Shown here: in pieces, positions 27,892 through 60,853 of the stretch
Position numbering within the stretch: the first letter of the stretch is position 1
How the letters are laid out: every line of letters starts with the position of its first letter
Assembly: GCF_045037415.1 (NCBI RefSeq)
Contig: NZ_CP173438.1
Source: Escherichia coli
Lineage (GTDB): Bacteria > Pseudomonadota > Gammaproteobacteria > Enterobacterales > Enterobacteriaceae
Strand: one strand, 5' to 3'
DNA: 64,000 nt
Notes under the pieces: model-generated
Told to the model about the DNA's origin: nothing
What the model saw: only the letters and a program-made list of their open reading frames with translations
Databases searched by the model: none
Made by a program: the position numbers and the translations under genes

Positions 27892-29097
27892 TTAAACCCC
27901 TTTGACAACGTCAGCGTTGACCTGTGGAACCCCGATTTCAGCGGCCAGATTCATGGCGGCTATTACCAGGTTACTGACGGCCAGCGGATACAGCAGGCTG
28001 ACCATATTTTTACGGTGACTTCCCGGATTGCTCAGGCGGGCACGTATGGCATCCACTGCACCGGCGTCCATAATGTCCGTCAGCTGTTTACCGGCCCGTT
28101 GCAGTTTGAACGTCAGAAATTCTTCAAGGTTATTGTCCAGAGGCAGAAGTTCGACCACCTCACAGCGCTGAACGACTTCACGGACTTCCATATTGCGTTC
28201 AGACAGTTTTGTCGCCAGTTCCGGCTGGCCAATCAGCACGATGGACAGCAGTTTTTTGAAACCGGACTCCAGCTCAAAAAAGCGTTTGAGGTGTTTCAGT
28301 GTCGGAATGGGCAGACTGTGGGCCTCCTCAATCACCAGAACGTGGCTGAACCCCGCCTGGCTGCTGTCTTTCAGGACGCGATGCAACTGGCGAAAACGGG
28401 CGTCCTGACTGCGTCTGATGCTTTCCAGTGGTGCGATGGTACTGATAATGGCTTCGGCAATAGCTGCTGCCTTCAGGGTTTTCCCTTTCACATCGTTGTC
28501 TTCCATAGCGATGATGTATGGCTCGATAACAATTACCGGCGCATTCTCGCGGTTGATACGTTCAGTCAGGTCGCGGCGCAGCGTGGATTTACCCGCACCG
28601 GACTCACCGATGACGGCCATAAACCCACCATGACGGGCTGTCTGGTACAGCGCCTCACGCACGTAGCGAATGTCCGGGGTGGTGAACACATCATCAGAAC
28701 CCTGCATGGCTTCGTCGGCGAACGGGTCACGGAAAAGACCAAACGCTTTTTTGGTTGCTGGAAATAACACCTGTTTTTTGAGTAACATATTCTCTTCCTC
28801 ACTGAGGCTCGTTTTATCTGTGGTACCCGCTGTACGGGGCGTGGCCGCGCCCTGTACAGCATCAAAACTCTTCGTTGTATCAATCCCCTGACTTTCCAGC
28901 CAGGACGCAAGACGCCGGCGCACTTCTCCGGGGCTGGTGCGGGGCCACGCGTTATGATTCACAATCTGGGCCAGCGTGGCCTCAGAAACATCGACAGCTC
29001 TCGCCACCACCGCCTGTGGAATACGGGCCTCTTTCAGTTGCTGCTTCAGTACCAGCATGTTTCCCTCCTCAGTTGCCGTTAACAATGCTGATAACAC
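27892..29097 (-). CDS. Transposition ATPase (MuB-like, AAA+)
   Basis: 401 aa; N-terminal HTH-like region; Walker A VIGESGAGKST; Walker B-like VLVIEEAH; immediately downstream of transposase. Confidence 0.65.
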   Translation of the reverse strand: MLSALLTATEEGNMLVLKQQLKEARIPQAVVARAVDVSEATLAQIVNHNAWPRTSPGEVRRRLASWLESQGIDTTKSFDAVQGAATPRTAGTTDKTSLSEEENMLLKKQVLFPATKKAFGLFRDPFADEAMQGSDDVFTTPDIRYVREALYQTARHGGFMAVIGESGAGKSTLRRDLTERINRENAPVIVIEPYIIAMEDNDVKGKTLKAAAIAEAIISTIAPLESIRRSQDARFRQLHRVLKDSSQAGFSHVLVIEEAHSLPIPTLKHLKRFFELESGFKKLLSIVLIGQPELATKLSERNMEVREVVQRCEVVELLPLDNNLEEFLTFKLQRAGKQLTDIMDAGAVDAIRARLSNPGSHRKNMVSLLYPLAVSNLVIAAMNLAAEIGVPQVNADVVKGV

Positions 29098-30838
29098 TGC
29101 TGCGGGCCGGTGTGGTCAGCGTGGCCATGACTTCATCCAGTGCGGCTTCCGGTACGCCGTCCGGGTACTGTGCCGTTAACTGGCGGTAATGTTCCGGCGT
29201 CCAGGTAAGGCCGTCGGCGCTGAACTTATCGCGCAGGGCTTTCGCGGCCTCCACATGAGTCATGGGACGTTGTTCAGTGCGCGGCCCGCGTACGTCAGAG
29301 GCCTGACCACGCTTCGGCATATAGGCCGGAAGTGTGGTGTCGTCGATATGTTTATACGGGTCAAGCCGCCCGCCGAACGGCAGCGCCTTCGCCTTGCGTG
29401 CGGCGGCTGCATCTGCGGCGTTGTCTGTACCGGTAACCAGCGCTTCGGTTTCTTTTGCCGCCATCTGTGCCGGGGTTTCCGGCAGGGCTTTGTAACTTTC
29501 GCCAAATACCGCCGCGCCTTCAGCAAAGCCAAACTCGTTCTTTCTGACCTCTTCGACCAGGAAGAACGTCTCGTGGCCGTCCTCACCGGTCAGAACCACC
29601 TGTGCCACATCGCTGCGCCATGGGTTACGGGTAATCATCAGTTTTTCACCAACCAGTACGCCCGGTACCGTTGATACGTCAAATTCAGTGCCCCGGAACG
29701 AGACACGAAGTTTTGGCGTGACTTTGCGGAGTTCTGGTGCCGCCACAGCCAGTTCACGACATACCTCAACGGAAGGCGCTTTTTTCAGCTGCTCAGCAGT
29801 AATCTTCAGCCAGATATCCGTGCGGGTTTTACCGTGGCGGCTGTGAACAGCCGTGGCGTTAAAGTGGCTGCGCCATTTCGCGGCCAGCGCGTTGAGTTCT
29901 TCCAGACTGTGAACCGGCCGGAACTTCAGACCCGGCTCCAGCTTGCGTTCGATAATGTCACGCGCCTTTTCCACCTGTCCGGTGGCGCGGGCGTTATGCG
30001 GCTTGTGCGCTATCAGGTCGATGCCCAGTGAGCGGCACATGTTTTTCGTCATACCCGCGGTGTTTGCCGAGCCGGGGTCGAGATAGAGTATTTTCGGCAC
30101 GCCGTGCAGCACGTCTGCGCCGCCACGCTCCTGCATGGCGTTGATAAGCACAGAACACAGGTTCTCACCTGATTCCGCGCCCGTCACATACTCAACGTAA
30201 ATCCAGCCGCTGGCATGGTCGGTAATCTCGTAACTCCACACGCGGTCACTGGCGATACGGGCAAGGTTAGCGGGCTTGTTCTTGTAGAACTTCGCGCTGT
30301 CCATCACCTGCAGCCCTTTATGTCCATTGCTCAGGTAGTAAAGCGTGCAGAGTGAGGCGTCAATCTGCCAGACATGATTGGGATGCAGACTGGCCACTTC
30401 GGTATGTGGTGCAGGGGCATCCAGTTGTTCCGGGTGCAGGCCATAGTTACGCAGAGCACGGCTGATGGCATCTTCAGACAACGGGAAAAACTCACTGGTG
30501 GTTTCATCTGTTCTGCCTGCGGTGATAAAGCCGTTAGCCCGCAGGGTTTCCACTGCATCTGCGATGGAATAGAGACGCTTACCGTTCTTGCGGGTGGCCT
30601 CACGCAGTGTGGCAGATATCAGCGCGGCTTCGTCGCGGGTCAGGGCGCTGCGCCCGGCATCGGCGCGTTTTTTGCGTTTATCAGTCACAGATACCTCCTT
30701 CAGCCTGCGCAGCAGAGTGGCGCGGGACATGCCAAGTTCAGCACAGGCAGCGTCGTATATTGCACCGCGTTTACCATGCCCCGCGTCACGTGCCGCGCGG
30801 GCTGTTTCAACCAGTTTTTCAGTCAGTGCCGGGGTCAT
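29069..30838 (-). CDS. DDE transposase (Mu A-like, rve/integrase core)
   Basis: 589 aa; N-terminal HTH; catalytic core HVWQIDASL...YLDPGSANTAG...ATGQVE consistent with D,D,E triad. Confidence 0.8.
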   Translation of the reverse strand: MTPALTEKLVETARAARDAGHGKRGAIYDAACAELGMSRATLLRRLKEVSVTDKRKKRADAGRSALTRDEAALISATLREATRKNGKRLYSIADAVETLRANGFITAGRTDETTSEFFPLSEDAISRALRNYGLHPEQLDAPAPHTEVASLHPNHVWQIDASLCTLYYLSNGHKGLQVMDSAKFYKNKPANLARIASDRVWSYEITDHASGWIYVEYVTGAESGENLCSVLINAMQERGGADVLHGVPKILYLDPGSANTAGMTKNMCRSLGIDLIAHKPHNARATGQVEKARDIIERKLEPGLKFRPVHSLEELNALAAKWRSHFNATAVHSRHGKTRTDIWLKITAEQLKKAPSVEVCRELAVAAPELRKVTPKLRVSFRGTEFDVSTVPGVLVGEKLMITRNPWRSDVAQVVLTGEDGHETFFLVEEVRKNEFGFAEGAAVFGESYKALPETPAQMAAKETEALVTGTDNAADAAAARKAKALPFGGRLDPYKHIDDTTLPAYMPKRGQASDVRGPRTEQRPMTHVEAAKALRDKFSADGLTWTPEHYRQLTAQYPDGVPEAALDEVMATLTTPARSSVISIVNGN

Positions 30839-32462: not shown

Positions 32463-32651
32463 TTAGGCCGCCTGAGCTGTTGATTTCAGTCCCAACTTCA
32501 CGGCGATTTCATGGGATTTACCGTAACGGGCTTTGGTCTGCCCGTTGAGAACGCGGTATACCTCATTGCGGTTGTAGCCGTTTTCTTCTGCCCAGCGGGT
32601 GAAAGTGATCCCGCGCTGGCGGAAGAGAGCTTTGACTTGTTCTGCAGTCAT
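32463..32651 (-). CDS. ner: Ner-like DNA-binding regulator
   Basis: 62 aa; first gene of the leftward early operon, divergent from repressor; Ner/Nlp-like HTH by recall. Confidence 0.6.
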   Translation of the reverse strand: MTAEQVKALFRQRGITFTRWAEENGYNRNEVYRVLNGQTKARYGKSHEIAVKLGLKSTAQAA

Positions 32652-32703
32652 CGTTGTCTCCTTTGTTGATGCAATGATGTTTGCCTTATATGTGTTAGAT
32701 TAT

Positions 32704-32721
32704 TGCTCATAATTATGAGCA
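32704..32721. promoter_or_regulatory. Candidate operator: perfect 18-bp palindrome TGCTCATAATTATGAGCA in the ner/repressor divergent intergenic region
   Basis: Read directly; centred in the 93-bp gap between divergent ner and repressor starts; half-site ATGAGCA recurs at 32745. Confidence 0.5.
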
Positions 32722-32744
32722 TATCAAGATAGAGATTCACTTTT

Positions 32745-33101
32745 ATGAGCAAAGATATAGGAGAGCGCGTTATTTCTGTGAGGAAGAAAGCAGGGTTGAA
32801 CCAGAGAGAATTTGCAGCTCGTTTAGGTATTTCTAATGGTGGTATCAGTCAGATTGAAAATGGAAAGGCGATGCCTGGAGGGGAGTTTCTGTTAAAGATG
32901 CATCAAGAGTTTAATGTTGATGTAAATTGGTTGCTCACTGGAATGAGCACAGATGGTATGACTAGAAACCAGAATCAAATTTCCCCAGAAAAACAAAAAC
33001 TAATAGATACTTTTGACGACATGACACCAGACCAACAACGCTCATTTCTTGAGATTGGGCGATTCTATACTCAGCCAAAACCAGGAAAAATCGCAGGCTG
33101 A
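32745..33101 (+). CDS. Prophage repressor (XRE-family HTH)
   Basis: 118 aa; N-terminal HTH LNQREFAARLGISNGGISQIENGKAMP; divergent from ner. Confidence 0.65.
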   Translation: MSKDIGERVISVRKKAGLNQREFAARLGISNGGISQIENGKAMPGGEFLLKMHQEFNVDVNWLLTGMSTDGMTRNQNQISPEKQKLIDTFDDMTPDQQRSFLEIGRFYTQPKPGKIAG

Positions 33102-33186
33102 TACTGACCCGGACACAAAGGACAGGTGGTTGATCTGGATGCTTTCAGAAAACATCGCCAGTGACATAGTGGAAGTTGTTTGGTTT

Positions 33187-33218
33187 ACCGGAAAGCATTG
33201 TGCTTTCCGGTTTTGTTT
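33187..33218 (+). terminator. Rho-independent terminator after repressor gene
   Basis: Hairpin accggaaagca-ttg-tgctttccggt followed by ttttgttt. Confidence 0.5.
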
Positions 33219-33982
33219 CAGAAGTTGCAGATTAGCAGTTCACGGCGCGGCGTGGGTTTACCCGCCAGACTGTAGTTGATATTCACTGTCTGTATGTTCA
33301 GTCCAGTGAACACCTCGCGCATCTGCGGGATGTCGTTCACCGAAATTATCATTTTTCCTCTGATGCACCGGGCCAGCTCTGCCAGCCGCGAGTAGTTCCC
33401 TTCAGGAAAATCCACACCATAGCCTTCCGTACCCAGGTACGGTGGGTCGCAGTAGAACAGCGTGTGCGGACGATCATAACGCTCAATGCACTGTTGCCAG
33501 TCCATGTGTTCTATGACTGTTCTGGAAAGCCGCAGGTGTGCCGCTGACAGTTCTTCTTCAATACGTAGCAGGTTGAAGCGTGGCGGGGATGTGGTGGAGG
33601 TACCGAAGCTGTGCTCTGCCACCTTGCCGCCAAACGCCTGCTTCTGAAGGTAGTAGAACCGTGCCGCACGCTGGATATCCGTCAGTGTTTCTTCCGGGGT
33701 GATCTGCAGCCATTTGTAGATCTGACGGCTGACCAGCGCCCATTTGAACTGGCGGACAAATTCTTCCAGGTGATGCTTTACCACCCGGTACAGATTCACC
33801 AGTTCACCGTTGATATCATTGATGACTTCGATCTTGCCGGGTGTCTTAAGAAAATAGAGCGCTGCTGCCCCACAAAACGGCTCCACATAACATTCATGCG
33901 CCGGAAACAGCGGCAGAATGTGTTTTGCAAGGCGGCGTTTGCCACCAATCCACGGCACGATGGGTAATGTCTGCATTTTCAT
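33218..33982 (-). CDS. Dam-like N6-adenine DNA methyltransferase (D12 class)
   Basis: ORF 33218..34072; likely start MKMQTLPIVPWIGGKRRL at 33982; SAM-binding FCGAAA and catalytic DPPY motifs. Confidence 0.7.
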   Translation of the reverse strand: MKMQTLPIVPWIGGKRRLAKHILPLFPAHECYVEPFCGAAALYFLKTPGKIEVINDINGELVNLYRVVKHHLEEFVRQFKWALVSRQIYKWLQITPEETLTDIQRAARFYYLQKQAFGGKVAEHSFGTSTTSPPRFNLLRIEEELSAAHLRLSRTVIEHMDWQQCIERYDRPHTLFYCDPPYLGTEGYGVDFPEGNYSRLAELARCIRGKMIISVNDIPQMREVFTGLNIQTVNINYSLAGKPTPRRELLICNF

Positions 33983-34172
33983 AATCTGCAAGCCTTTTAC
34001 AATTATTAAAAAATATGGCAGTCTGGTCAGGTCTCGCGAGACTGACTGAACCTTGGTCGGCTCACAGCGCATTCCTGTGGGGCGATGACCAGCCCGGCTT
34101 TCGGGTGCCGGGCTGGTCGTTCTTTCATGATGCGGCAGGGATGGCGGGATTTCTGTTAATGTGGTTTAGGGA

Positions 34173-34388
34173 TTATCCGGGGCGATTTTCTGACCTTATC
34201 CGGTCCAGGGCATAAGTAATACCTTCTGCAAAAACAGAAGTATCAAACTGCTTTTGTATTCCCTGAAAATGAAAAGCGGCACGACAGACACTCAGTTCTC
34301 CGCGGTATAACCGGATAATATCTTCCAGAACATTGTTCACTGCTTCAGCACGGCGCTGATGTTCTGTTAACGTTAATCGGGGATTCAT
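34173..34388 (-). CDS. Hypothetical small protein (71 aa) in cargo module
   Basis: ORF only; its start overlaps the start of the divergent 134-aa ORF, so one of the two may be spurious. Confidence 0.25.
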   Translation of the reverse strand: MNPRLTLTEHQRRAEAVNNVLEDIIRLYRGELSVCRAAFHFQGIQKQFDTSVFAEGITYALDRIRSENRPG

Positions 34389-34791
34389 GATGCACTCCTT
34401 AAATGATGATTTTTATGTACTCACCGGCAAAATATTCTGCCGATTACTGAACACGCATCCGGCACCTCAGGTTTTGATTTATTCTGGTTTTTTCGATATC
34501 CCGGACCAGGTTGATCACGACCAGAAAAAGTGCCGGTGTTTTATTGATACGCTGATATGGCTTCGGGATAACAGCTATATTCGTTACTCTCAGTTGCTGG
34601 CTGTGGGAGCGGCTGATGTCGTCCTCACGGAAAAAACGCTCTGTCTGCTCAATGCCATGCCGACCTTTCTGCAGCCCCGGCCCGTACCATTTAAAGAGTC
34701 ACTTCTGGATGCAGTAAAAACCGGTGAAAATGCAGTCATCGCTGAATGCGTATCCCGGATTATGCGTTACGTGTTTAATGAACGTAAGTGA
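34387..34791 (+). CDS. Hypothetical protein (134 aa) in cargo module
   Basis: ORF only; convergent 25-nt overlap with the P-loop gene; no motif recognised. Confidence 0.3.
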   Translation: MMHSLNDDFYVLTGKIFCRLLNTHPAPQVLIYSGFFDIPDQVDHDQKKCRCFIDTLIWLRDNSYIRYSQLLAVGAADVVLTEKTLCLLNAMPTFLQPRPVPFKESLLDAVKTGENAVIAECVSRIMRYVFNERK

Positions 34792-35495
34792 GGTTTATCC
34801 GCTGTCTGCATAATCCCGATAGCCAGTGCGAGGGGAAGTAATTCCGGGGAAACTCTTTCAAACAGCGATGCCCATTCTCCTCTCGCCATCACTCTGTCCA
34901 GCCCGCCCTCCAGTTGCATTTCAGCAATCTTCCTGATTTCCCGGAACAACGCCGCTTTGATCTCTTCATGCTCAGCTTTATTTTCCGGTGTCAGAAGGTA
35001 TTCGTCGAAGAACCGGGGAGGCTGGTTAATCGGGATGTGTTCCTGTTTGCCGTACTTCGGGGACGAACAACATTCTGTTGACTGACCAGTGAGTTTACGT
35101 AACTCCTTCATGAGCAGCTCCTGATCGTAAACTGTCATCAGTGCCGCAATGGTGGCATGCAGTGCATCGGGCAGTATCCAGGGTTGCCGGCCCGTGGGGC
35201 ATATAACATCCAGCAGCTCATTCGTCCGACAGATACGCTCCTCGCCGTATGACAACAGGCCCTGTCCCGTGTATTCCTCCAGCCTGATCACTGTGCCAGC
35301 CCGTGGTTTCTGCCATGTGCTCAGATCATCCCCACTCATACGGCGCTCACCGTCCACGTCTGCGGCGTCGACAATGACGCTGTTTCCGAATTCCTGTTTC
35401 ACCACTTCCTCTATTCGCGCCAGTACGTAACTTTTACCGCTGCCCACAGGACCGGACACGGTGACAGTGATGACCGGATTCAGTGTCTGCGTCAT
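34767..35495 (-). CDS. P-loop NTPase-like protein of unknown function (242 aa)
   Basis: Walker A VTVSGPVGSGKSY at N-terminus; remainder unrecognised. Confidence 0.45.
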   Translation of the reverse strand: MTQTLNPVITVTVSGPVGSGKSYVLARIEEVVKQEFGNSVIVDAADVDGERRMSGDDLSTWQKPRAGTVIRLEEYTGQGLLSYGEERICRTNELLDVICPTGRQPWILPDALHATIAALMTVYDQELLMKELRKLTGQSTECCSSPKYGKQEHIPINQPPRFFDEYLLTPENKAEHEEIKAALFREIRKIAEMQLEGGLDRVMARGEWASLFERVSPELLPLALAIGIMQTADKPHLRSLNT

Positions 35496-35625
35496 ATCGT
35501 ATTCTCCTCTGTGAATAATTCATCGTTTATCCTGCACATCCCGTATCCCCGGCTCTCTTAACGCGCTTTAAAATCCTTCGCGCCCTGTATTTGTGATGCT
35601 GTCTCCACCAGATAAGGAGACACAC

Positions 35626-35976
35626 ATGAAAAACCTGAAAAAATTCATTCCCCCTGTTAAAAAACCTCGCCTCAGCGGCTGGCTGCTGACCTCAGTGCTG
35701 TTGCTGGGCACCATCGCTCTGGTCTCACCACAGCAGCTGCCTGTTGTGATCTACAAGCTGGCACTCATCACGCTGGCAGCAGTGCTGGGTTACTGGCTTG
35801 ACCGTTCGCTCTTCCCCAAAGCCCGTCCCGGTCAGTACCTGAAACATGACGACAGGCTGATGGCTGAAGGGCGTTTCCCGGTACAGACCGGCCTTCACCT
35901 GGTGTTTTCTGCTGCGTTAATCCGCCGTGCACTGATTGTTGCAGCGGTCTGCCTGGCTGTTGCGATGGGGCTTTAA
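35626..35976 (+). CDS. Putative holin / small membrane protein
   Basis: ORF 35593..35976; ATG at 35626 preceded by SD aaggaga; about 3 predicted TM segments; first gene of lysis cassette. Confidence 0.4.
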   Translation: MKNLKKFIPPVKKPRLSGWLLTSVLLLGTIALVSPQQLPVVIYKLALITLAAVLGYWLDRSLFPKARPGQYLKHDDRLMAEGRFPVQTGLHLVFSAALIRRALIVAAVCLAVAMGL

Positions 35977-35978
35977 TC

Positions 35979-36719
35979 ATGAACTGGCCGCAGATCACCT
36001 GGATTGTATGCATGTCCCTGAAACTGGCTTTCGAAGCCTTTCGGGTCTTCATCAGAACCGAACGCCTGTCAGTCCGCGCCGGGACCTTTCTGGTTCATAT
36101 GGCATGGGTATTCTTTGTCGCAATGTTGCTCTGGTGTGGCGGCTTTTTCAGCCAGGCATGCGCAGCACAACCTCCGCAGGCTGCGCTGCAGTATCGCGAT
36201 GATGTGATCCGTAATGCCCGGCTTGAATGGGGACTGTCTGCGCCGGTGGCCGATTTCGCCGCGCAACTGCATCAGGAAAGCGGCTGGCGACCTGATGCGA
36301 TCTCGCCGGCTGGCGCTCAGGGACTGGCGCAGTTCATGCCTGCCACTGCCGACTGGATAAGCCAGTTGATACCGATGCTGAGCAGTCGTGAGCCGTTTAA
36401 TCCGGCATGGGCTATCCGGGCGCTGGTCAGCTATGACCGCTGGCTGTGGCAGCGTGTCAGCGCCGCCAGTGACTGCGAGCGTATGGCCATGACACTGTCG
36501 GGCTATAACGGTGGTCTGGGCTGGGTACAACGGGACAGGCGGCTTGCATCACAGAAAGGTCTGGACAGCACCCGCTGGTTCGGACATGTCGCCACGGTGA
36601 ATGCCGGACGCAATGCGGCCAGCTGGCGGGAGAACCGCCATTATCCGCAGCGCATCCTGCGCGAACTGGCACCGCGATATCTCACATGGGGAGGCAGCAG
36701 TTGTGTGGCATCTGGTTAA
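35979..36719 (+). CDS. Endolysin, lytic transglycosylase (SLT domain) with hydrophobic N-terminus
   Basis: 246 aa; motif LHQESGWRPDAISPAGAQGLAQFMPATA typical of SLT domains; hydrophobic N-terminal stretch suggests signal or SAR anchor; true start may be internal. Confidence 0.65.
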   Translation: MNWPQITWIVCMSLKLAFEAFRVFIRTERLSVRAGTFLVHMAWVFFVAMLLWCGGFFSQACAAQPPQAALQYRDDVIRNARLEWGLSAPVADFAAQLHQESGWRPDAISPAGAQGLAQFMPATADWISQLIPMLSSREPFNPAWAIRALVSYDRWLWQRVSAASDCERMAMTLSGYNGGLGWVQRDRRLASQKGLDSTRWFGHVATVNAGRNAASWRENRHYPQRILRELAPRYLTWGGSSCVASG

Positions 36720-37987: not shown

Positions 37988-38532
37988 TGGCCAGACGCAG
38001 CACAATAGAAAAGCTGCCGGAAGACGTGCGCCGCTGGCTTGAACGGGCGCTGACTGAATCCGGCTTCAGCGGGTATAACGAGCTGGAGTCACTGTTGCGT
38101 GAGCGGGGGTACGTCATCAGCAAATCCGCTATCCATCGCTATGGACAGAAGATTGAGCGCCGCTATGGTGCTATCCGTGCGGCAACAGAAGCGGCCCGCA
38201 TGCTGACCGAAGGCGCAGCAGACGATCAGGATGCGCGTTCGGAGGCTGTGATAGCCCTTATTCAGACCGAGCTGTTCGAGAGTATTGTCCAGTTGCAGGA
38301 GGCGGAAGAAGGCGAAGTCGATCCTAAAGAACGCGTGGCCCTGCTGTCGAAGGTGGCGAAGAATGTGGCTACGCTGTCCCGCGCGTCCGTCAACCTCAAA
38401 AAGTTCCAGTCTGAAGTACGGGCCAGAGCGCAGCAGGCAGCCAGCAACGCCGAGAAAATTGCCCGTAAGGGGGGACTGTCAAGCGACGCAGTACAGGCGC
38501 TTCGTCGCGAGATTCTGGGGATTGCCACATGA
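37987..38532 (+). CDS. Putative terminase small subunit (Mu gp27-like)
   Basis: 181 aa; immediately upstream of large terminase; helical, basic N-terminus. Confidence 0.5.
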   Translation: MARRSTIEKLPEDVRRWLERALTESGFSGYNELESLLRERGYVISKSAIHRYGQKIERRYGAIRAATEAARMLTEGAADDQDARSEAVIALIQTELFESIVQLQEAEEGEVDPKERVALLSKVAKNVATLSRASVNLKKFQSEVRARAQQAASNAEKIARKGGLSSDAVQALRREILGIAT

Positions 38533-40124
38533 CAAAATCATCCGGAGTGATTTTAAACGCCGCTGGCGGCGGCCCCGAAGGGATGAGTCCCATGGACGGG
38601 AGGAATAACCTTGCTCCCGTTTTGCCTGATACCTCGGCGCTGGATGCCCCTCCCGTTCTGTTGCCTTACCAGCAGCGCTGGGTGGCAGACACCTCTCCGC
38701 TTAAGGTGATAGAAAAGAGCCGTCGTACCGGTATTACATGGGCTGAGGCATCCGATAACGTACTGACCGCCGCCTCTTCTGCGCCAGCAGGCGGGATGAA
38801 TGTGTATTACATCGCTTATAACCAGGACATGACCGTCGAATACATTCAGGCGTGTGCGATGTGGGCACGGGCATTCAACTATGCGGCCAGTGAAATTGAA
38901 GAAGGATTCTGGGAAGAGGACGACGACGACAAACACATCAAGACTTACACCATCAAATTTCCTGACTCCGGCTTTCGTATTGTTGCGCTCTCCAGCCGCC
39001 CGTCTAACCTGCGTGGCCGTCAGGGTATTATTGTTATCGACGAAGCGGCGTTCCATGAGCAACTGGACGAACTGCTGAAAGCGGCGCTGGCGATGCTTAT
39101 CTGGGGGGGAAAGGTACGCGTTATCTCCACCCATGACGGTGACGACAATCCGTTCAATACGCTTATCGGGGATATCCGTGCCGGACGTCAGGGAGGCAGC
39201 ATACATCGCATCACTTTCCGGGAAGCCGTATCTGAGGGGCTGTTCCGGCGCGTCTGTCTGCGCACCGGGAAGGAATGGTCGGAGGCATCCGAGCAGGCCT
39301 GGATGGCATCGGTGTACAAATTCTACGGTGCCGGCGCATCCGAAGAGCTTGACTGTATTCCGGCCAACGGTGGCGGTGCCTGGCTGTCCCGTGCCCTGAT
39401 AGAGTCCCGCATGTCCGCTGATACGCCGGTATTGCGTCTGACCTGCAAGGAAGGTTATGAACTGCTGTCTGATGAGGTTCGCTTCCGCGAGACGCAGGAC
39501 TGGCTTGATGAGTATCTGAAACCATTGCTGGAGGCACTCCCCACTGATGCCCGCTCTTTCCTGGGGCGCGACTTTGGCCGTAGCGGTGATTTGTCGGTGG
39601 ACTATCCCCTGCTGCAGGAGAAGAACCTGGTACGACGCGTGCCATTCGTACTGGAGCTGCGTAACGTGCCGTTCAGACAGCAGGAGCAAATCACCTGGTA
39701 TCTGATGGATGGCCTGCCCGGTCTGCTGGGTGCAGCGTTTGATGCCCGTGGTAATGGTGCCTATCTGGCTGAATACGCCATGCAGCGCTACGGCTCCGGC
39801 CGGGTTCAGCAGGTGATGCCAACCGAAGGCTGGTACCGGGAGCATATGCCTCCGGTCAAAGCTGCACTGGAAGACGGCAACCTGGTGGACTTACCAAAGG
39901 ATGAAGACACACTGGATGACCTGCGGGCCGTTCAGGTGGTGAACGGTGTCCCCCGCGTACCGGAGCAACGCTCAAAAGCAAAGGCTGACGGTGGTAAACG
40001 CCACGGGGATTCAGCCATCGCACTGGCGCTGGCGTATTTCGCCAGCCGTGAAATTAACAAAGGGCCGGTGAAGGCAAGCTCACGCCGTCGTCGTCAGGCG
40101 GCCCGTATGCTGGAGGGATTCTGA
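38529..40124 (+). CDS. Terminase large subunit (Mu gp28-like)
   Basis: 531 aa; ATPase region with Walker B-like IIVIDEAAF; nuclease C-terminal region; followed by portal. Confidence 0.7.
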   Translation: MTKSSGVILNAAGGGPEGMSPMDGRNNLAPVLPDTSALDAPPVLLPYQQRWVADTSPLKVIEKSRRTGITWAEASDNVLTAASSAPAGGMNVYYIAYNQDMTVEYIQACAMWARAFNYAASEIEEGFWEEDDDDKHIKTYTIKFPDSGFRIVALSSRPSNLRGRQGIIVIDEAAFHEQLDELLKAALAMLIWGGKVRVISTHDGDDNPFNTLIGDIRAGRQGGSIHRITFREAVSEGLFRRVCLRTGKEWSEASEQAWMASVYKFYGAGASEELDCIPANGGGAWLSRALIESRMSADTPVLRLTCKEGYELLSDEVRFRETQDWLDEYLKPLLEALPTDARSFLGRDFGRSGDLSVDYPLLQEKNLVRRVPFVLELRNVPFRQQEQITWYLMDGLPGLLGAAFDARGNGAYLAEYAMQRYGSGRVQQVMPTEGWYREHMPPVKAALEDGNLVDLPKDEDTLDDLRAVQVVNGVPRVPEQRSKAKADGGKRHGDSAIALALAYFASREINKGPVKASSRRRRQAARMLEGF

Positions 40125-56783: not shown

Positions 56784-57354
56784 GCCATTACAACTCCCGC
56801 CACCGCTTGAGGGTGATATCAGTCTCAGGACGCTGGGAAGACTGGCAGGACGGCTGGATAACATCGACCTGAGCGTACTGATGGTCTTTCTCGTCGATAT
56901 CGTCGACAGTTCCGCGCTGCCATGGCTGGGCGAGCAGTTCTCACTGTCTGGCGATGGCTGGGAGCTGGCGGAATCGGACGATGTTCGCCGCATGCTTATA
57001 AAAGCAGCCATCGAACTGCACCGGTATAAAGGGACGCCGTGGTCAATCCGGGAAGTTATCCGCCGTTTTGGCTTTGGTGAAGTGGATCTGATTGAAGGCA
57101 CAGGTCGTCTCAGTTACGACGGCAATCGCAGCTATAACGGACTGTTTGTTCATGGAGATGCAGCCGCCTGGGCAGTTTATCGCGTTATTCTGAAACAGCC
57201 CATTACTAACGATCAGGCCGCGATGCTGCGTCAGACGCTGGCTGCATTTGCACCGGCCCGCTGCCATCTGGCCAGCCTGGAGTATCAGTCTGTGGCCATT
57301 CGCTATAACAATACCGCCATCCATGATGGCAGTTATAACCACGGGAGCAGTTGA
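56776..57354 (+). CDS. Baseplate/tail protein (gpI-like)
   Basis: 192 aa; overlaps J-like stop and fibre start. Confidence 0.5.
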   Translation: MTEPLQLPPPLEGDISLRTLGRLAGRLDNIDLSVLMVFLVDIVDSSALPWLGEQFSLSGDGWELAESDDVRRMLIKAAIELHRYKGTPWSIREVIRRFGFGEVDLIEGTGRLSYDGNRSYNGLFVHGDAAAWAVYRVILKQPITNDQAAMLRQTLAAFAPARCHLASLEYQSVAIRYNNTAIHDGSYNHGSS

Positions 57355-58688
57355 TTATGGGAAACCTGAATGAAACAGAAAAGTGGGAAGAAAATATCTA
57401 TCAACTGGAGACATCAGATCCGGTTCTGGGTGGTGCAGACGGGATATCAAATCGAGCCCCCCGGCAACTGGCAAACAGGACGAAATGGCTGAAGAAGAAA
57501 ACGGAGGAAGCCGCACAGTCACTGGCTGAACACGTACGTTCCCGTAACCACCCGGACGCGACACTGACAGCTAAGGGGTTCACCCAACTGAGCAGTGCCA
57601 CCAACAGCACCTCTGAAACGCTGGCCGCCACACCAAAAGCGGTCAAGGCTGCATACGACCTGGCAGCCGGCAAGGCGCCTGCCAGCCACACTCACCCGTG
57701 GAGTCAGATAACGGGAGTGCCTGCGGCTTCACTGACGGCAAAAGGCACCGTACAACTGAGCAGCGCCACGGACAGTCAATCAGAAACTGAGGCTGCCACG
57801 CCGAAGGCGGTCAAGGCTGCATACGACCTTGCAGCCGGCAAGGCGCCCGTCAGCCACACTCACCCGTGGAGTCAGATAACGGGAGTGCCTGCTGCCTCGC
57901 TGACGGCAAAAGGCACCGTACAATTGAGCAGTGCCATCAACAGCACGTCTGAAATACTGGCCGCCACACCGAAAGCGGTCAAGGCTGCATACGATCTGGC
58001 AAACGGAAAACAACCGGCAGATGCCACGCTCACTGCTCTGGCAGGACTTGCCACTGCAGCAGATCGGTTGCCTTATTTTACCGGAGCAGACCGCGCAGAG
58101 CTGGCAACCCTTACAGCTATTGGTCGCGCTATTATCGCTAAGGGCAGTATAAAAGATGTCCTCAATTACCTTGGTTTAGGAGAAGGCTCGGCGCTACCCG
58201 TTGGTGTGCCTGTTCCGTGGCCCACCGCCACACCGCCAGCAGGCTGGTTAAAGTGCGACGGGCGCGCCTTTACAAAAGAACAATATCCTGTTCTGGCCAG
58301 AGTCTACCCGACCCTCCGTCTTCCCGATTTACGCGGTGAGTTTATCCGTGGATGGGACGACGGGCGCAAAGTTGATACAGGACGTAAGTTGCTGTCCGCA
58401 CAAGGGGCAACGCTGTTAAGAACAGCAATGCTGGATTATTATAACCAGGACACTACGGGAACCTCGGGGATAGTCGGCATGGGATTCAACAATGAAGATT
58501 CCATTACAGACCTTCGTGAGGGCAGCTTTAAAATGCCGGACGGGACAACATTCAGCGATCCTGTCGTGGCAATGTCAGACAATGGTATGCAGGCTACTAT
58601 TCTGACCTCTATCAGAAGCGGGTATGCGAAGGGTATCACTGTCAGACCCCGTAGCATTGCACTTAATTACATTGTGAGGGCAGTTTAA
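57351..58688 (+). CDS. Tail fibre protein (constant N-terminal part fused to variable C-terminal cassette 1)
   Basis: 445 aa; three tandem fibre repeats (TAKG.QLSSAT.S.SE..AATPKAVKAAYDLA.GK); C-terminal part homologous to the two inverted cassettes. Confidence 0.8.
   Translation: MIMGNLNETEKWEENIYQLETSDPVLGGADGISNRAPRQLANRTKWLKKKTEEAAQSLAEHVRSRNHPDATLTAKGFTQLSSATNSTSETLAATPKAVKAAYDLAAGKAPASHTHPWSQITGVPAASLTAKGTVQLSSATDSQSETEAATPKAVKAAYDLAAGKAPVSHTHPWSQITGVPAASLTAKGTVQLSSAINSTSEILAATPKAVKAAYDLANGKQPADATLTALAGLATAADRLPYFTGADRAELATLTAIGRAIIAKGSIKDVLNYLGLGEGSALPVGVPVPWPTATPPAGWLKCDGRAFTKEQYPVLARVYPTLRLPDLRGEFIRGWDDGRKVDTGRKLLSAQGATLLRTAMLDYYNQDTTGTSGIVGMGFNNEDSITDLREGSFKMPDGTTFSDPVVAMSDNGMQATILTSIRSGYAKGITVRPRSIALNYIVRAV
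57561..58005 (+). repeat. Three tandem copies of about 50-aa tail-fibre repeat
   Basis: Protein-level repeat seen directly in the translation. Confidence 0.7.
58160..58185. other. Candidate invertase crossover site 1 (gix/hix-like)
   Basis: TCCTCAATTACC-TT-GGTTTAGGAGAA; right half-site complement TTCTCCTAAACC resembles Gin/Hin half-site TTCCTGTAAACC; at constant/variable junction of fibre gene. Confidence 0.55.
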
Positions 58689-59302
58689 TGAGTAACACTG
58701 CAGTTCTGGATGAAAACGGTATCGCCACTGTAGCGGGCGATATCACTGTATATCACTATGACGAGGAAACCCGGGAATACACCTCATCCTCTGTGGAGTA
58801 TCTCGCCCTTGGGGTGGGTACTCCGGCACATTCGTGCGCCGATGCACCGCCGGAAGCAATTTCGGGTTACGTGGTTTGCCGGACTGCCACGCTGAACGGG
58901 TGGGAGCATGTGCCTGATCACCGCGGCGAGACGGTATACAGCACGGAGAACGGTAACCCCGTTCTGATTACCCAACCGGGTGATTACCCGGCGGACACCA
59001 CCACAAAACAGCCAGCCACGCCATGGGATACCTGGAACGGTGAGGCGTGGGTAACCGATACTGAACGGCAGCGAGCCGCAGAACTGGAGGTTGCCAGACA
59101 GCAACGCCAGCAACGGGTGAAACAGGCGATGGCGTCCGTCGATCTTATCAACCTCAAACTGCGTGCTGGTCGCAGTCTGAAACCAGAAGAAACGGCAAAA
59201 CTGAACGCCGTGCTGGATTATATCGACGAGCTGAACGCACTGGATATCAGCAAGGCACCTGAAATCAGCTGGCCGGAAGCGCCACTGGCGCTTGCCGGCT
59301 GA
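58688..59302 (+). CDS. Tail fibre assembly protein (putative)
   Basis: 204 aa; ATGA-coupled to fibre stop. Confidence 0.5.
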   Translation: MSNTAVLDENGIATVAGDITVYHYDEETREYTSSSVEYLALGVGTPAHSCADAPPEAISGYVVCRTATLNGWEHVPDHRGETVYSTENGNPVLITQPGDYPADTTTKQPATPWDTWNGEAWVTDTERQRAAELEVARQQRQQRVKQAMASVDLINLKLRAGRSLKPEETAKLNAVLDYIDELNALDISKAPEISWPEAPLALAG

Positions 59303-59308
59303 ACGGTA

Positions 59309-59770
59309 TCACGCCGCCCTCACGATATAGTTAAATGCGATATTGCGGGGGCGAGCTGATACATAAGCCCACCAGTCATATCTTTGTGCACCTTTAGAGG
59401 ATGCATCAAATATCCACTTTTTGCCATTTAAGACCCCCAGTTGATTAGAGGTTAAAGCGTCACCAAATCCGTATTGTGTAGAGCCGAGCGAACTGATATC
59501 TCCGGTATCATTATCATCAAAACCGGATACGATAGTCCCTTCCTGAAATGAAAGTAGCGCACGCCCGGTATCAACCTTGCGACCACCGTCCCATCCACGG
59601 ATAAACTCACCGCGCAAATCGGGAAGACGGAGGGTCGGGTAGACTCTGACCAGAACAGGATATTGTTCTTTGGTGAACGTAGCTCCGTTGCACTGTAACC
59701 AGCCTGCTGGCGGTGTGGCGGTGGGCCATGGAACCGGTACACCAACAGGCAATGCAGAGCCTTCCCCCAA
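59309..59770 (-). CDS. Alternative tail-fibre C-terminal cassette 2 (inverted, promoterless)
   Basis: 153 aa; begins GEGSALPVGVPVPWPTATPPAGWL..., ends RPRNIAFNYIVRAA, both matching the resident fibre C-terminus; starts at crossover site 2. Confidence 0.6.
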   Translation of the reverse strand: MGEGSALPVGVPVPWPTATPPAGWLQCNGATFTKEQYPVLVRVYPTLRLPDLRGEFIRGWDGGRKVDTGRALLSFQEGTIVSGFDDNDTGDISSLGSTQYGFGDALTSNQLGVLNGKKWIFDASSKGAQRYDWWAYVSARPRNIAFNYIVRAA

Positions 59771-59787: not shown

Positions 59788-60209
59788 GCCCTTACGATGT
59801 AATTAAACGCAATGTTACGGGGACGAATGGTCACATAATTAACCCCATCGCCTCGCGAAGGACCTGCAAATGAAAAACGGGAGAATCCAGGTTGGTTGTC
59901 AACGATTTGGTCATAGTTATTGATTGAATGACCAGACCCAATGTCAAAATTACCTGCGTAATGAGAAAAACTTGTACCATCCTGCCGTGAAAGCAGATCG
60001 CGCCCTGTATCCACTTTTCGCCCGTCGTCCCATCCACGGATAAACTCACCGCGTAAATCGGGAAGACGGAGGGTCGGGTAGACTCTGGCCAGAACAGGAT
60101 ATTGTTCTTTTGTAAAGGCGCGCCCGTCGCACTTTAACCAGCCTGCTGGCGGTGTGGCAGTGGGCCACGGAACAGGTACACCAACGGGCAGCGCCGAGCC
60201 TTCCCCCAA
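59781..60209 (-). CDS. Alternative tail-fibre C-terminal cassette 3 (inverted, promoterless)
   Basis: 142 aa; first 70 residues nearly identical to the resident variable part; ends RPRNIAFNYIVRAA. Confidence 0.6.
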   Translation of the reverse strand: MGEGSALPVGVPVPWPTATPPAGWLKCDGRAFTKEQYPVLARVYPTLRLPDLRGEFIRGWDDGRKVDTGRDLLSRQDGTSFSHYAGNFDIGSGHSINNYDQIVDNQPGFSRFSFAGPSRGDGVNYVTIRPRNIAFNYIVRAA

Positions 60210-60227
60210 ACCAACGTTTATCTCTCA
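60202..60227. other. Candidate invertase crossover site 3 (same orientation as site 2)
   Basis: TTCCCCCAAACC-AA-CGTTTATCTCTC; immediately upstream of invertase gene. Confidence 0.5.
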
Positions 60228-60280
60228 AATCCTCCCCACATTATCTCAGTACTTTAACCACTCAAAAGGGAGTATTTTTA

Positions 60281-60853
60281 ATGCTGATTGGCTACATACG
60301 TGTGTCAACAAATGACCAAAACACAGATTTGCAACGCAATGCATTAATGTGCGCAGGATGTGAACAGATTTTTGAGGACAAAATGAGCGGAACCAAGTCG
60401 GAACGACCAGGCCTGAAACGCGCTTTAAAGTGCCTTAAAAGAGGGGATACATTGGTGGTCTGGAAGCTGGATCGGTTGGGTAGAAGAATGAAACACCTCA
60501 TTGCTCTCACAGAAGAGCTACGCGCAAAAGGTGTCAATTTTCGCAGTCTGACGGATTCAATCGATACCAGCACTCCGATGGGAAGGTTCTTTTTTCATAT
60601 GATGGGTGCACTGGCAGAAATGGAGCGTGAACTGATAGTTGAGCGCACGCTGGCTGGACTGGCTGCTGCGCGAGCACAAGGAAGAGTTGGAGGACGTCGC
60701 CCGAAACTGACGAAGGAGCAGCATGAGCAGATCGCAAGATTGCTCCAGAAAGGGTATGACAGAAAGCGGCTGGCAATTATCTATGATATTGGACTGTCAA
60801 CGATCTACCGCTATCACCCTGTTGGGACTGTCATAACGCAACCTGAAATGTAA
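60281..60853 (+). CDS. Serine-recombinase DNA invertase (Gin/Hin/Pin/Cin family)
   Basis: Within ORF 60152..60853; ATG at 60281 after SD aaaggga; N-terminal MLIGYIRVSTNDQNTDLQ with catalytic Ser; C-terminal HTH. Confidence 0.85.
   Translation: MLIGYIRVSTNDQNTDLQRNALMCAGCEQIFEDKMSGTKSERPGLKRALKCLKRGDTLVVWKLDRLGRRMKHLIALTEELRAKGVNFRSLTDSIDTSTPMGRFFFHMMGALAEMERELIVERTLAGLAAARAQGRVGGRRPKLTKEQHEQIARLLQKGYDRKRLAIIYDIGLSTIYRYHPVGTVITQPEM

Follow-up and report, generated by a model that had tools for sequence, protein, structure and literature searches.

A Probable Composite Accessory Region Between the Repressor and Lysis Genes of a BcepMu-Like Prophage of Escherichia coli

The Locus and Its Genes

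The DNA analysed here is a 64,000-nucleotide stretch of an Escherichia coli chromosome (contig NZ_CP173438.1 of assembly GCF_045037415.1), referred to throughout as the window, and the element in question is a group of four genes lying between the repressor and the lysis genes of a transposable prophage. The corresponding open reading frames (ORFs) are found at 33218-34072 (- strand), 34173-34388 (- strand, 71 amino acids, aa), 34387-34791 (+ strand, 134 aa), and 34767-35495 (- strand, 242 aa), and all four are already annotated in RefSeq genomes. The first encodes a DNA methyltransferase (methylase), while the 71-, 134-, and 242-aa proteins correspond to phrog_4490, phrog_2266, and phrog_3787, each a PHROG family of unknown function. 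The methylase and repressor genes converge, and the 242-aa and holin genes diverge. The 71- and 134-aa genes overlap at their divergent starts by 2 nucleotides (nt; tCATGa at 34386-34389), and the 134- and 242-aa genes are convergent with a 25-nt overlap of their 3' ends. Judged from their sequences, the 71- and 134-aa ORFs are both real genes.

A first-pass annotation of the window, made from its letters and ORF translations, had described these four ORFs as one cargo module in which a Dam-like methylase is paired with a P-loop NTPase and two additional proteins. Its coordinates and quoted motifs hold good, the 242-aa protein carrying GPVGSGKS at residues 15-22 and the methylase carrying PFCGAAA and CDPPY. 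The overlapping divergent starts are likewise confirmed, as is the orientation of the group, convergent with the repressor and divergent from the late operon. The analysis points with reasonable confidence to a different organization, namely an accessory region of composite make-up in a transposable prophage of the BcepMu type, with two layers rather than a single system. The first layer is the methylase M.EcoMIV together with a structured RNA with a terminator-like 3' end, and this layer abuts the late lysis promoter in many relatives. The second is a three-gene insertion between the RNA and the late promoter, comprising a head-to-head gene pair and a mosaic protein.

The segment 33100-35600 is a 100% match to Escherichia phage PhiKM (Bcepmuvirus), and the host prophage corresponds to the EC958 prophage Phi2, the PhiKM and Phi2 matches both being 100% over the region. 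The module had been said to sit where Mu has no genes. Mu is the wrong reference phage for this locus, which belongs to a BcepMu-type phage; BcepMu itself carries three accessory genes, gp18-20, at this position, between its repressor and holin.

An Orphan Adenine Methylase

The methylase gene (33218..33982, - strand) encodes a 254-aa orphan N6-adenine DNA methyltransferase of the Dam family (D12 class), recognized by PF02086, TIGR00571, phrog_56, and its RefSeq annotation. A D12 methylase had been correctly identified here, its 284-aa extent being the part that did not stand: in RefSeq and in homologues the protein begins with MKMQ at 33982 (MK(M/E/Q) across homologues) and not at 34072, and the extra 90 nt of the over-extended ORF coincide with part of a conserved RNA structure encoded on the opposite strand. 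The Pfam family PF02086 matches residues 11-234 (E 6.9e-29), and TIGR00571 is matched at 116 bits, just over its cut-off of 114.85. Motif IV (CDPPYLG, containing DPPY) and motif I (EPFCGAAALYF, the S-adenosylmethionine-binding FxGxG) can be read in the translation. Among proteins of solved structure, DpnM (E 6.5e-17) and E. coli Dam (E 5.5e-14) match best, and the E. coli Dam equivalog model NF008152 is failed by a wide gap (66.5 bits against a cut-off of 441). In Dam and DpnM a common hairpin, NGLxR..FNVPxGRY, reads GATC. The methylase aligns to this hairpin with FGGKVAEHSFGTSTTSPPRF, and a different or relaxed specificity is plausible on the strength of this alignment.

No restriction endonuclease accompanies the methylase, its neighbours being the repressor, the 71-aa ORF, and the winged-helix gene, and PADLOC yielded no restriction endonuclease model. 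By its sequence context the enzyme is an orphan and not part of a Type II restriction-modification system. Identity with the non-specific M.EcoGII type was ruled out, M.EcoGII being a beta-class enzyme. Because it is the sole methylase in Phi2, it is M.EcoMIV (EC958_1101) of Forde et al. (2015). Transcription of M.EcoMIV in the EC958 lysogen was significantly below that of dam, no methylation motif could be assigned to it, and it has no characterised close homologue (Forde et al., 2015; PMC4659465). The suggestion that the methylase serves epigenetic self-marking of the lysogen is weakened by its expression far below dam and by the lack of an assigned motif.

A Structured RNA Opposite the Methylase Leader

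A conserved structured RNA lies at 34014..34133 on the + strand, opposite to the methylase, and is supported by covariation, G-U asymmetry, and a covariance model. Helix P0 (34025-34043) is followed by P1 (34044-34126), which encloses P2 (34056-34086; CUCACAG-N7-CUGUGGG) and P3 (34087-34118), the last being a GC stem of 12 bp with GUUCUUUC directly after it. A promoter-like site, TTTTCA-16-TACAAT, was found just upstream of the RNA at 33976-34003 (+ strand) in a promoter and terminator scan. About 150 nt 5' of the methylase start are conserved in every variant of the locus, and sequence conservation among the variants ends exactly at the U-tract of the RNA.

In the alignment of 44 unique sequences 98.3% of cells are paired and 12 pairs show compensatory changes, these covariation counts being inflated by the relatedness of the 44 sequences to each other. 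None of 500 shuffles matched the observed value on any of five measures, and slid controls gave 30-56%. Of the non-Watson-Crick cells, 153 are G-U when read on the + strand, compared with 13 on the methylase-sense strand, an asymmetry that establishes the + strand as the functional strand of the RNA. The same asymmetry led to a first RNAalifold reading being dropped, in which a sense-strand leader hides the methylase ribosome-binding site. Helix P3 resembles a terminator in having its GC stem and following tract on the + strand only, but its GUUC also pairs with an upstream GAAC in P1, with compensatory changes.

The Rfam library gave no match at E<=1 on either strand of 33000-35700. The covariance model of the RNA gives a 126-bit match, and it also finds the RNA in loci that have lost the methylase or retain just a remnant of it (A24, L096/97, and L146). 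An exact-pattern scan of IMG/VR returned 75 RNA matches. In 72 of these the opposite strand carries a methylase start, or what is left of one, at a distance of 75-78 nt, mostly 76-78 nt; the distances in the remaining matches are 62, 69, 90, and ~712 nt. In about half of the 75 the holin start is only ~172 nt downstream of the RNA. As far as the libraries searched show, this covarying element is undescribed so far.

A Head-to-Head Gene Pair Joined by CATG

The 71-aa protein (34173..34388, - strand) belongs to phrog_4490 (E 7e-53) and has a homologue in Serratia with 31% identity (E 6e-10); no significant Pfam match was obtained for it. The AAGGAG ribosome-binding site of its gene falls within the first codons of the 134-aa gene. 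The latter (34387..34791, + strand; phrog_2266) encodes a winged-helix protein with a C-terminal helical hairpin, in which the topology H1-strand-H2-H3-hairpin wing of a MarR/PadR-like fold is present. A Serratia homologue with 53% identity carries the UniRef name DUF2513, yet the 134-aa query gave no Pfam match at E<=10 and 31 members of its family gave none at E<=0.001. A literature search on DUF2513 and PhiKM found nothing useful.

The winged-helix family is confined to Enterobacterales. In addition to BcepMu-like prophages, it is present in the P2-like phages Midge, ST147-VIM1phi7.1, and FSL SP-004 and in 40-odd IMG/VR prophages. In P2-like phages the gene lies between the portal and replication genes, in the interval known as the variable hotspot of P2, and the cargo flanking it differs on the two sides. 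The start-codon overlap CATG with a divergent 63-73-aa ORF was found at 52 of 53 loci, representing 39 unique junctions and two unrelated prophage types (window 34386-34389; L005, L006, L007, and L024-L077). Shine-Dalgarno-like motifs occur on both strands a few bases to either side of the junctions, the window reading GGGGAttCATGatgcaCTCCTT. In P2-like prophages synonymous changes accompany a conserved amino-acid sequence in both ORFs of the pair, and the small partners of the BcepMu-like and P2-like pairs have no detectable homology to each other. With the ribosome-binding site of each gene embedded in its partner, the mRNAs of the pair must be complementary over both initiation regions. From this arrangement we infer that expression of the two genes may be mutually exclusive. 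A search of the available libraries suggests that the CATG pair, like the RNA, has not been described so far.

The surroundings of the pair in P2-like prophages (L036-L077) are varied. Within ~4 kb of the winged-helix gene these loci encode a Walker A protein of 433 aa that has a partner of 145 aa, a protein of 572 aa whose N-terminus is DUF262-like, a 316-aa protein that carries a polymerase annotation and is accompanied by a helix-turn-helix gene, a Fic protein, and DinI-like genes. The cargo around the pair in these prophages is probably of a defence type.

A Mosaic Protein with a Minimal Walker A Domain

The 242-aa protein (34767..35495, - strand; phrog_3787) is a mosaic in which an N-terminal mini P-loop domain of ~75 aa (GPVGSGKS ... 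IRLEE) is followed by a middle cassette (residues ~90-140) and then by a C-terminal one (residues ~170-230). An exhaustive search of 1.84 billion representatives returned 60 relatives, and only residues 1-76 are common to most of them (~50). The C-termini of the relatives vary and are built from recurring short cassettes in shuffled order. Across 45 sequences of the mini-domain G15, G18, G20, K21, and E74 are near-invariant, and I28 is also conserved. The Walker A pattern GxxxxGK[ST] is present as GPVGSGKS at residues 15-22, with a few members carrying GKN instead of GK[ST]. The candidate for a Walker B motif (hhhhD/E) is IRLEE, with the near-invariant E74 after a hydrophobic strand; the AlphaFold2 model shows no beta-sheet by DSSP. 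That model has a pLDDT of 64.7 and is confident only at residues 10-70, and a Foldseek search with it against PDB found no fold match. Searches of Pfam, NCBIfam, and PDB sequences gave matches limited to the Walker A stretch, all at E>=0.005.

The mini-domain also occurs by itself, as complete ORFs of 73-90 aa in unrelated phage-like contigs. Two of these stand-alone forms were located precisely (73 aa, L158 1063-1284; 78 aa, L157 4001-4237); one lies directly 5' of a ribonucleotide-reductase small-subunit gene, and the other lies amid small ORFs typical of early genes. RefSeq names for relatives of the 242-aa protein include KAP NTPase and ABC transporter ATPase. One defining feature of P-loop proteins, the Walker A motif, is present here, but a complete alpha/beta P-loop core of about five strands is lacking, the conserved domain ending near residue 76. 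On the sequence and the predicted structure the protein is best not classed as an NTPase. The NTPase assigned by the first-pass annotation is replaced by a 75-residue Walker A mini-domain joined to shuffled cassettes. No convincing sigma-70 promoter for the 242-aa gene was found in 35496-35626.

Gene Content of the Slot in Related Prophages

The association of the four genes was assessed in a survey anchored on the SLT endolysin, which comprised 80 IMG/VR loci and covered the whole repressor-to-holin interval in 63. Thirty-two of these 63 loci have the methylase only, 12 have none of the six features scored, 10 have all six and are all close relatives of the window, 6 have the N-domain and the middle cassette without the methylase, and 3 have other combinations, one each. 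Overall the methylase is present in 44 of the 63 and absent from 19, and the set of 71-, 134-, and 242-aa genes is present in only 10. None of these is a core gene of Bcepmuvirus-type phages, BcepMu having gp18-20 instead. At least six different gene contents were found at the repressor-to-lysis slot among relatives, bearing out the earlier prediction of an accessory island with variable cargo at a fixed position. Similar variety is seen in the complete E. coli strains A24, E15, and cS51a and in the enterobacterial prophage L008. In the E15 type the homology to the window breaks within the 242-aa gene at ~codon 155.

A BcepMu-like prophage of Serratia offers a more distant comparison. It carries, in order, the methylase (83% identity), the small ORF (31%), the winged-helix gene (53%), and a - strand gene beside the holin. 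The product of this last gene is 89 aa long and has no P-loop domain; its similarity to the 242-aa protein is limited to residues 177-228 (46%, E 1e-10). From the survey and the Serratia block together it follows that the methylase and the P-loop domain are not obligate partners. These data bear directly on the possibility that all four ORFs form one co-operating system of methylase, P-loop NTPase, and two accessory proteins, acting in anti-restriction, in self-marking defence, or as a toxin/immunity pair. The genes are adjacent and are co-inherited in ~475 E. coli genomes, their ends overlap, and the order in Serratia is similar. Nevertheless, the methylase alone occupies 32 of the 63 loci, the N-domain occurs without it in six, and Serratia does without the P-loop domain. 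Furthermore, the 71/134-aa pair stands alone in P2-like phages, the P-loop is a 75-aa fragment with GKN in some members, only the methylase is matched by PADLOC, and M.EcoMIV is silent in the lysogen. A single four-gene system is accordingly very improbable, and the module originally proposed does not survive as such.

Searches for known defence functions were largely negative. In PADLOC-DB v2 only the methylase was matched, by MTase_II models; the 71- and 134-aa proteins had no matches, and the 242-aa protein had Walker A-level matches only (best E 0.003). A PADLOC search of the four proteins together with ten alternative cargo proteins gave the methylase matches and otherwise weak, non-specific ones. 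Pfam and NCBIfam searches of the three uncharacterised proteins and of their family alignments returned Walker A-level matches only, in agreement with the earlier statement that the three non-methylase ORFs have no known function. No toxin or antitoxin domain was recognisable in Pfam, NCBIfam, or PADLOC.

The same slot holds other cargo elsewhere (L096 6707-7282, L108 6706-7272, L116 6607-7179, and L003 4370-4951). In these loci a + strand protein of 188-193 aa (phrog_5663, function unknown) is convergent with a - strand protein of 113-127 aa that resembles, by eye, the C-terminal cassettes of the mosaic family. The L003 member of phrog_5663 had no PADLOC match. A second cargo slot lies between the repressor and the methylase 3' end (L004 737-2952, in cS51a; L002 and L003 2853-3839). 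It contains a nucleoid-associated protein and a 401-aa protein with a weak KwaA-like match in cS51a, whereas in A24, E15, and others it encodes a protein of 328 aa in the same direction as the repressor.

The C-terminal cassette could form a unit with the 71-aa and winged-helix genes. Extended to function, this becomes the proposal that the three parts make up a self-contained unit, independent of the methylase, that acts in superinfection exclusion, defence, or anti-defence and is switched by the winged-helix regulator. The parts occur together in both E. coli and Serratia at 31-53% identity with their start and 3' overlaps conserved, and the slot elsewhere holds other pairs in which a + strand gene is convergent with a small - strand cassette protein. 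Moreover, at the old/tin-type hotspot of P2 the pair is surrounded by genes likely to serve defence, DUF262-like and reverse-transcriptase-like ones for example. On the other hand, P2-like prophages have the pair without a cassette homologue, PADLOC matches neither small protein and matches the 242-aa protein only at the level of Walker A, and no effector-like domain is recognisable. Such a three-gene unit is best treated as a tentative possibility.

The position of the inserted genes is defined by the sequences that flank them. The late (lysis) promoter region at 35556..35626 (+ strand) contains the boxes TTAACGC..TTTAAAATCC, TGTGATGCTGTCTCC, and AAGGAGAC, followed by the ATG of the holin. 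These boxes are conserved even in distant relatives, and in cargo-free relatives they lie ~40 nt past the U-tract of the RNA. They are probably the late promoter together with the binding region of a Mor/C-type activator, and this region is the right-hand edge of the cargo slot. Because conservation stops at the U-tract and resumes with the boxes at ~35556-35626, the 71-, 134-, and 242-aa genes are an insertion between the RNA and the lysis promoter. Comparison of these sequences places the methylase and the RNA as the older, semi-core unit.

By analogy with the Dam control of Mu mom, IS10, and P1 pac, the methylase and RNA may instead serve the phage's own regulation, with methylation state setting the timing of transposition, late transcription, or packaging. 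The unit is semi-core (44/63 loci), every one of the 75 motif matches comes with the methylase or a remnant of it, and the unit abuts the late promoter in many relatives. Moreover, the E. coli host possesses Dam, so that protection there would gain nothing from a second GATC enzyme. Against this, 19 of the 63 loci lack the methylase, some of them retaining the RNA only, which implies that the enzyme is dispensable for the phage cycle, and the recognition hairpin is unlike that of Dam, suggesting another site. A purely self-regulatory role is therefore regarded as doubtful.

Proposed Roles of the Two Layers

For the favoured composite of two layers, the gene identities and their distribution, the mosaic structure, the covariation and strand of the RNA, the winged-helix fold, and the published silence of the methylase in the lysogen are established, whereas every functional role is inferred. 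The methylase, kept silent in the lysogen, would be active in lytic growth, when it would methylate replicating phage DNA and allow progeny to escape restriction, as Mom does in Mu. The RNA may stop rightward transcription before the lysis genes, regulate the methylase, or do both. Within the insertion, the winged-helix protein could be a DNA-binding regulator and the pair a regulatory switch in which complementary mRNAs impose mutually exclusive expression. The mosaic protein may interact with host or competitor factors.

Several observations weigh against this interpretation. The recognition hairpin of Dam and DpnM is not conserved, so that even GATC methylation by the enzyme is no more than a conjecture. 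The survival of the RNA without the methylase in A24, L096/97, and L146 argues against a role limited to methylase control. In a test for embedded promoters, the first 10-20 codons of the pair gave a weak signal, with synonymous diversity reduced just slightly. The ten window-type loci of the survey are closely related, and the co-occurrence counts are consequently not independent. Finally, given the order common to E. coli and Serratia and the conserved 3' overlaps, the methylase, the small ORF, the winged-helix gene, and the C-terminal cassette could still act together.

A further, speculative reading, considered unlikely at present, is that the locus contains two undescribed regulatory devices, a CATG bistable switch and a class of methylase-linked RNA, in addition to a 75-residue Walker A domain that is a natural minimal P-loop protein. 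If so, the 71-aa/winged-helix pair would be a compact, mobile bistable switch with either/or expression that turns cargo on or off in the hotspots of P2-like and BcepMu-like phages. The methylase-linked RNA would likewise be a new class of phage RNA, silencing the methylase in the lysogen and shielding the lysis operon from read-through.

Prophage Context and Prevalence

The window is a segment of an ST131-type E. coli chromosome (mukFEB, rpsA, cmk, ycaL), and the prophage is inserted between ycaL and aroA. As in other BcepMu-like phages the early operon is inverted, that is, leftward; it includes a Ner-like gene (32463-32651) and the transposase (29069-30838), with a Mor-like activator at its far end. 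The repressor gene (32745-33101, + strand) is rightward. An intrinsic terminator hairpin at 33187..33211 (+ strand; -18.5 kcal/mol, z -4.95), identified in a terminator scan and followed by UUUUGUUU on the + strand, lies 3' of the repressor gene, between it and the methylase 3' end. The late genes, all on the + strand, include the holin (ATG at 35626; phrog_1528), the SLT endolysin (35979-36719), and the terminase (38529-40124). The G+C content is 0.43-0.50 over 32500-34750, lower than in the rest of the phage.

Annotation of the region differs among records. A 41-aa ORF at 33042-33167 (- strand), overlapping the repressor 3' end, is a coding sequence (CDS) in the PhiKM record and is absent from the RefSeq annotation, and the 134-aa gene is not annotated in the PhiKM record. 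At the right end of the prophage (60152-60853 and 57351-59770) a recombinase-family, invertase-like gene lies beside tail-fibre and tail-fibre-assembly genes, and EC958 has partial tail-fibre pseudogenes at the same end. By analogy with Mu, this arrangement suggests an invertible host-range segment.

The region was found in 626 of 5,426 complete E. coli genomes, with at least 80% of it present in 475 of these. The prophage occurs in the pandemic ST131 lineage and in about one tenth of complete E. coli genomes, a prevalence that places its accessory genes among the most widespread E. coli genes of unknown function. Removal of the tempting reading as a methylase-NTPase defence system leaves a silent orphan methylase with a non-Dam hairpin, a covarying RNA absent from Rfam, and the CATG gene pair as testable objects. 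Any of them may be relevant to prophage induction, to the evasion of restriction, or to the regulation of hotspot cargo, although none has a bearing as yet on a long-standing open question.

Comparison with Known Systems

Parts of the region are already known. The methylase has been reported, the variable slot is a known kind of prophage feature, and the three inserted proteins belong to uncharacterised families. The M.EcoMIV of Forde et al. (2015; PMC4659465) is the same gene, with a D12-class domain, in the same prophage at the same site, aroA-ycaL; the neighbouring genes and the RNA element are not described in that paper, and no target site is given. With E. coli Dam, DpnM, and T4 Dam, the GATC-specific alpha-class D12 enzymes, the methylase shares its Pfam and TIGR families and the motifs FxGxG and DPPY. 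It differs from E. coli Dam in failing the equivalog model (66.5 versus 441 bits) and in having the hairpin replaced by FGGKVAEHSFGTSTTSPPRF.

The mom gene of Mu provides a functional parallel, by analogy only: a DNA-modifying enzyme of a transposable phage, silent in the lysogen and located by a late promoter and a structured RNA. There is no sequence relationship, however, Mom being an acetamido-adenine modifier encoded at the Mu right end, and mom is controlled by Com acting on a sense-strand hairpin, whereas the RNA described here is on the opposite strand. The mini-domain resembles P-loop NTPases in its Walker A motif (GxxGxGK[ST]) and in the conserved acidic E74 after a hydrophobic strand. 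It differs from them in being only ~75 residues long, in having GKN in some members and stand-alone forms of 73-90 aa, and in showing no match beyond Walker A.

The head-to-head pair recalls the face-to-face switches of P2 (C/Cox) and 186 (CI/Apl), in which there are likewise two divergent small genes with 5'-overlapping transcripts and implied interference. In the present pair, known from sequence alone, the start codons themselves overlap (CATG), the ribosome-binding sites lie inside the partner CDS, and the proteins are unrelated to those of P2 and 186. The slot as a whole is comparable to the defence hotspots of P2- and P4-like phages and to moron loci. In contrast to these hotspots, it lies in a BcepMu-like phage, extends from the methylase-linked RNA to the lysis promoter, and has cargo without a match to known defence families. 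It shares with them a fixed position and interchangeable cargo of low G+C, and the 134-aa family is itself found in the P2 hotspot.

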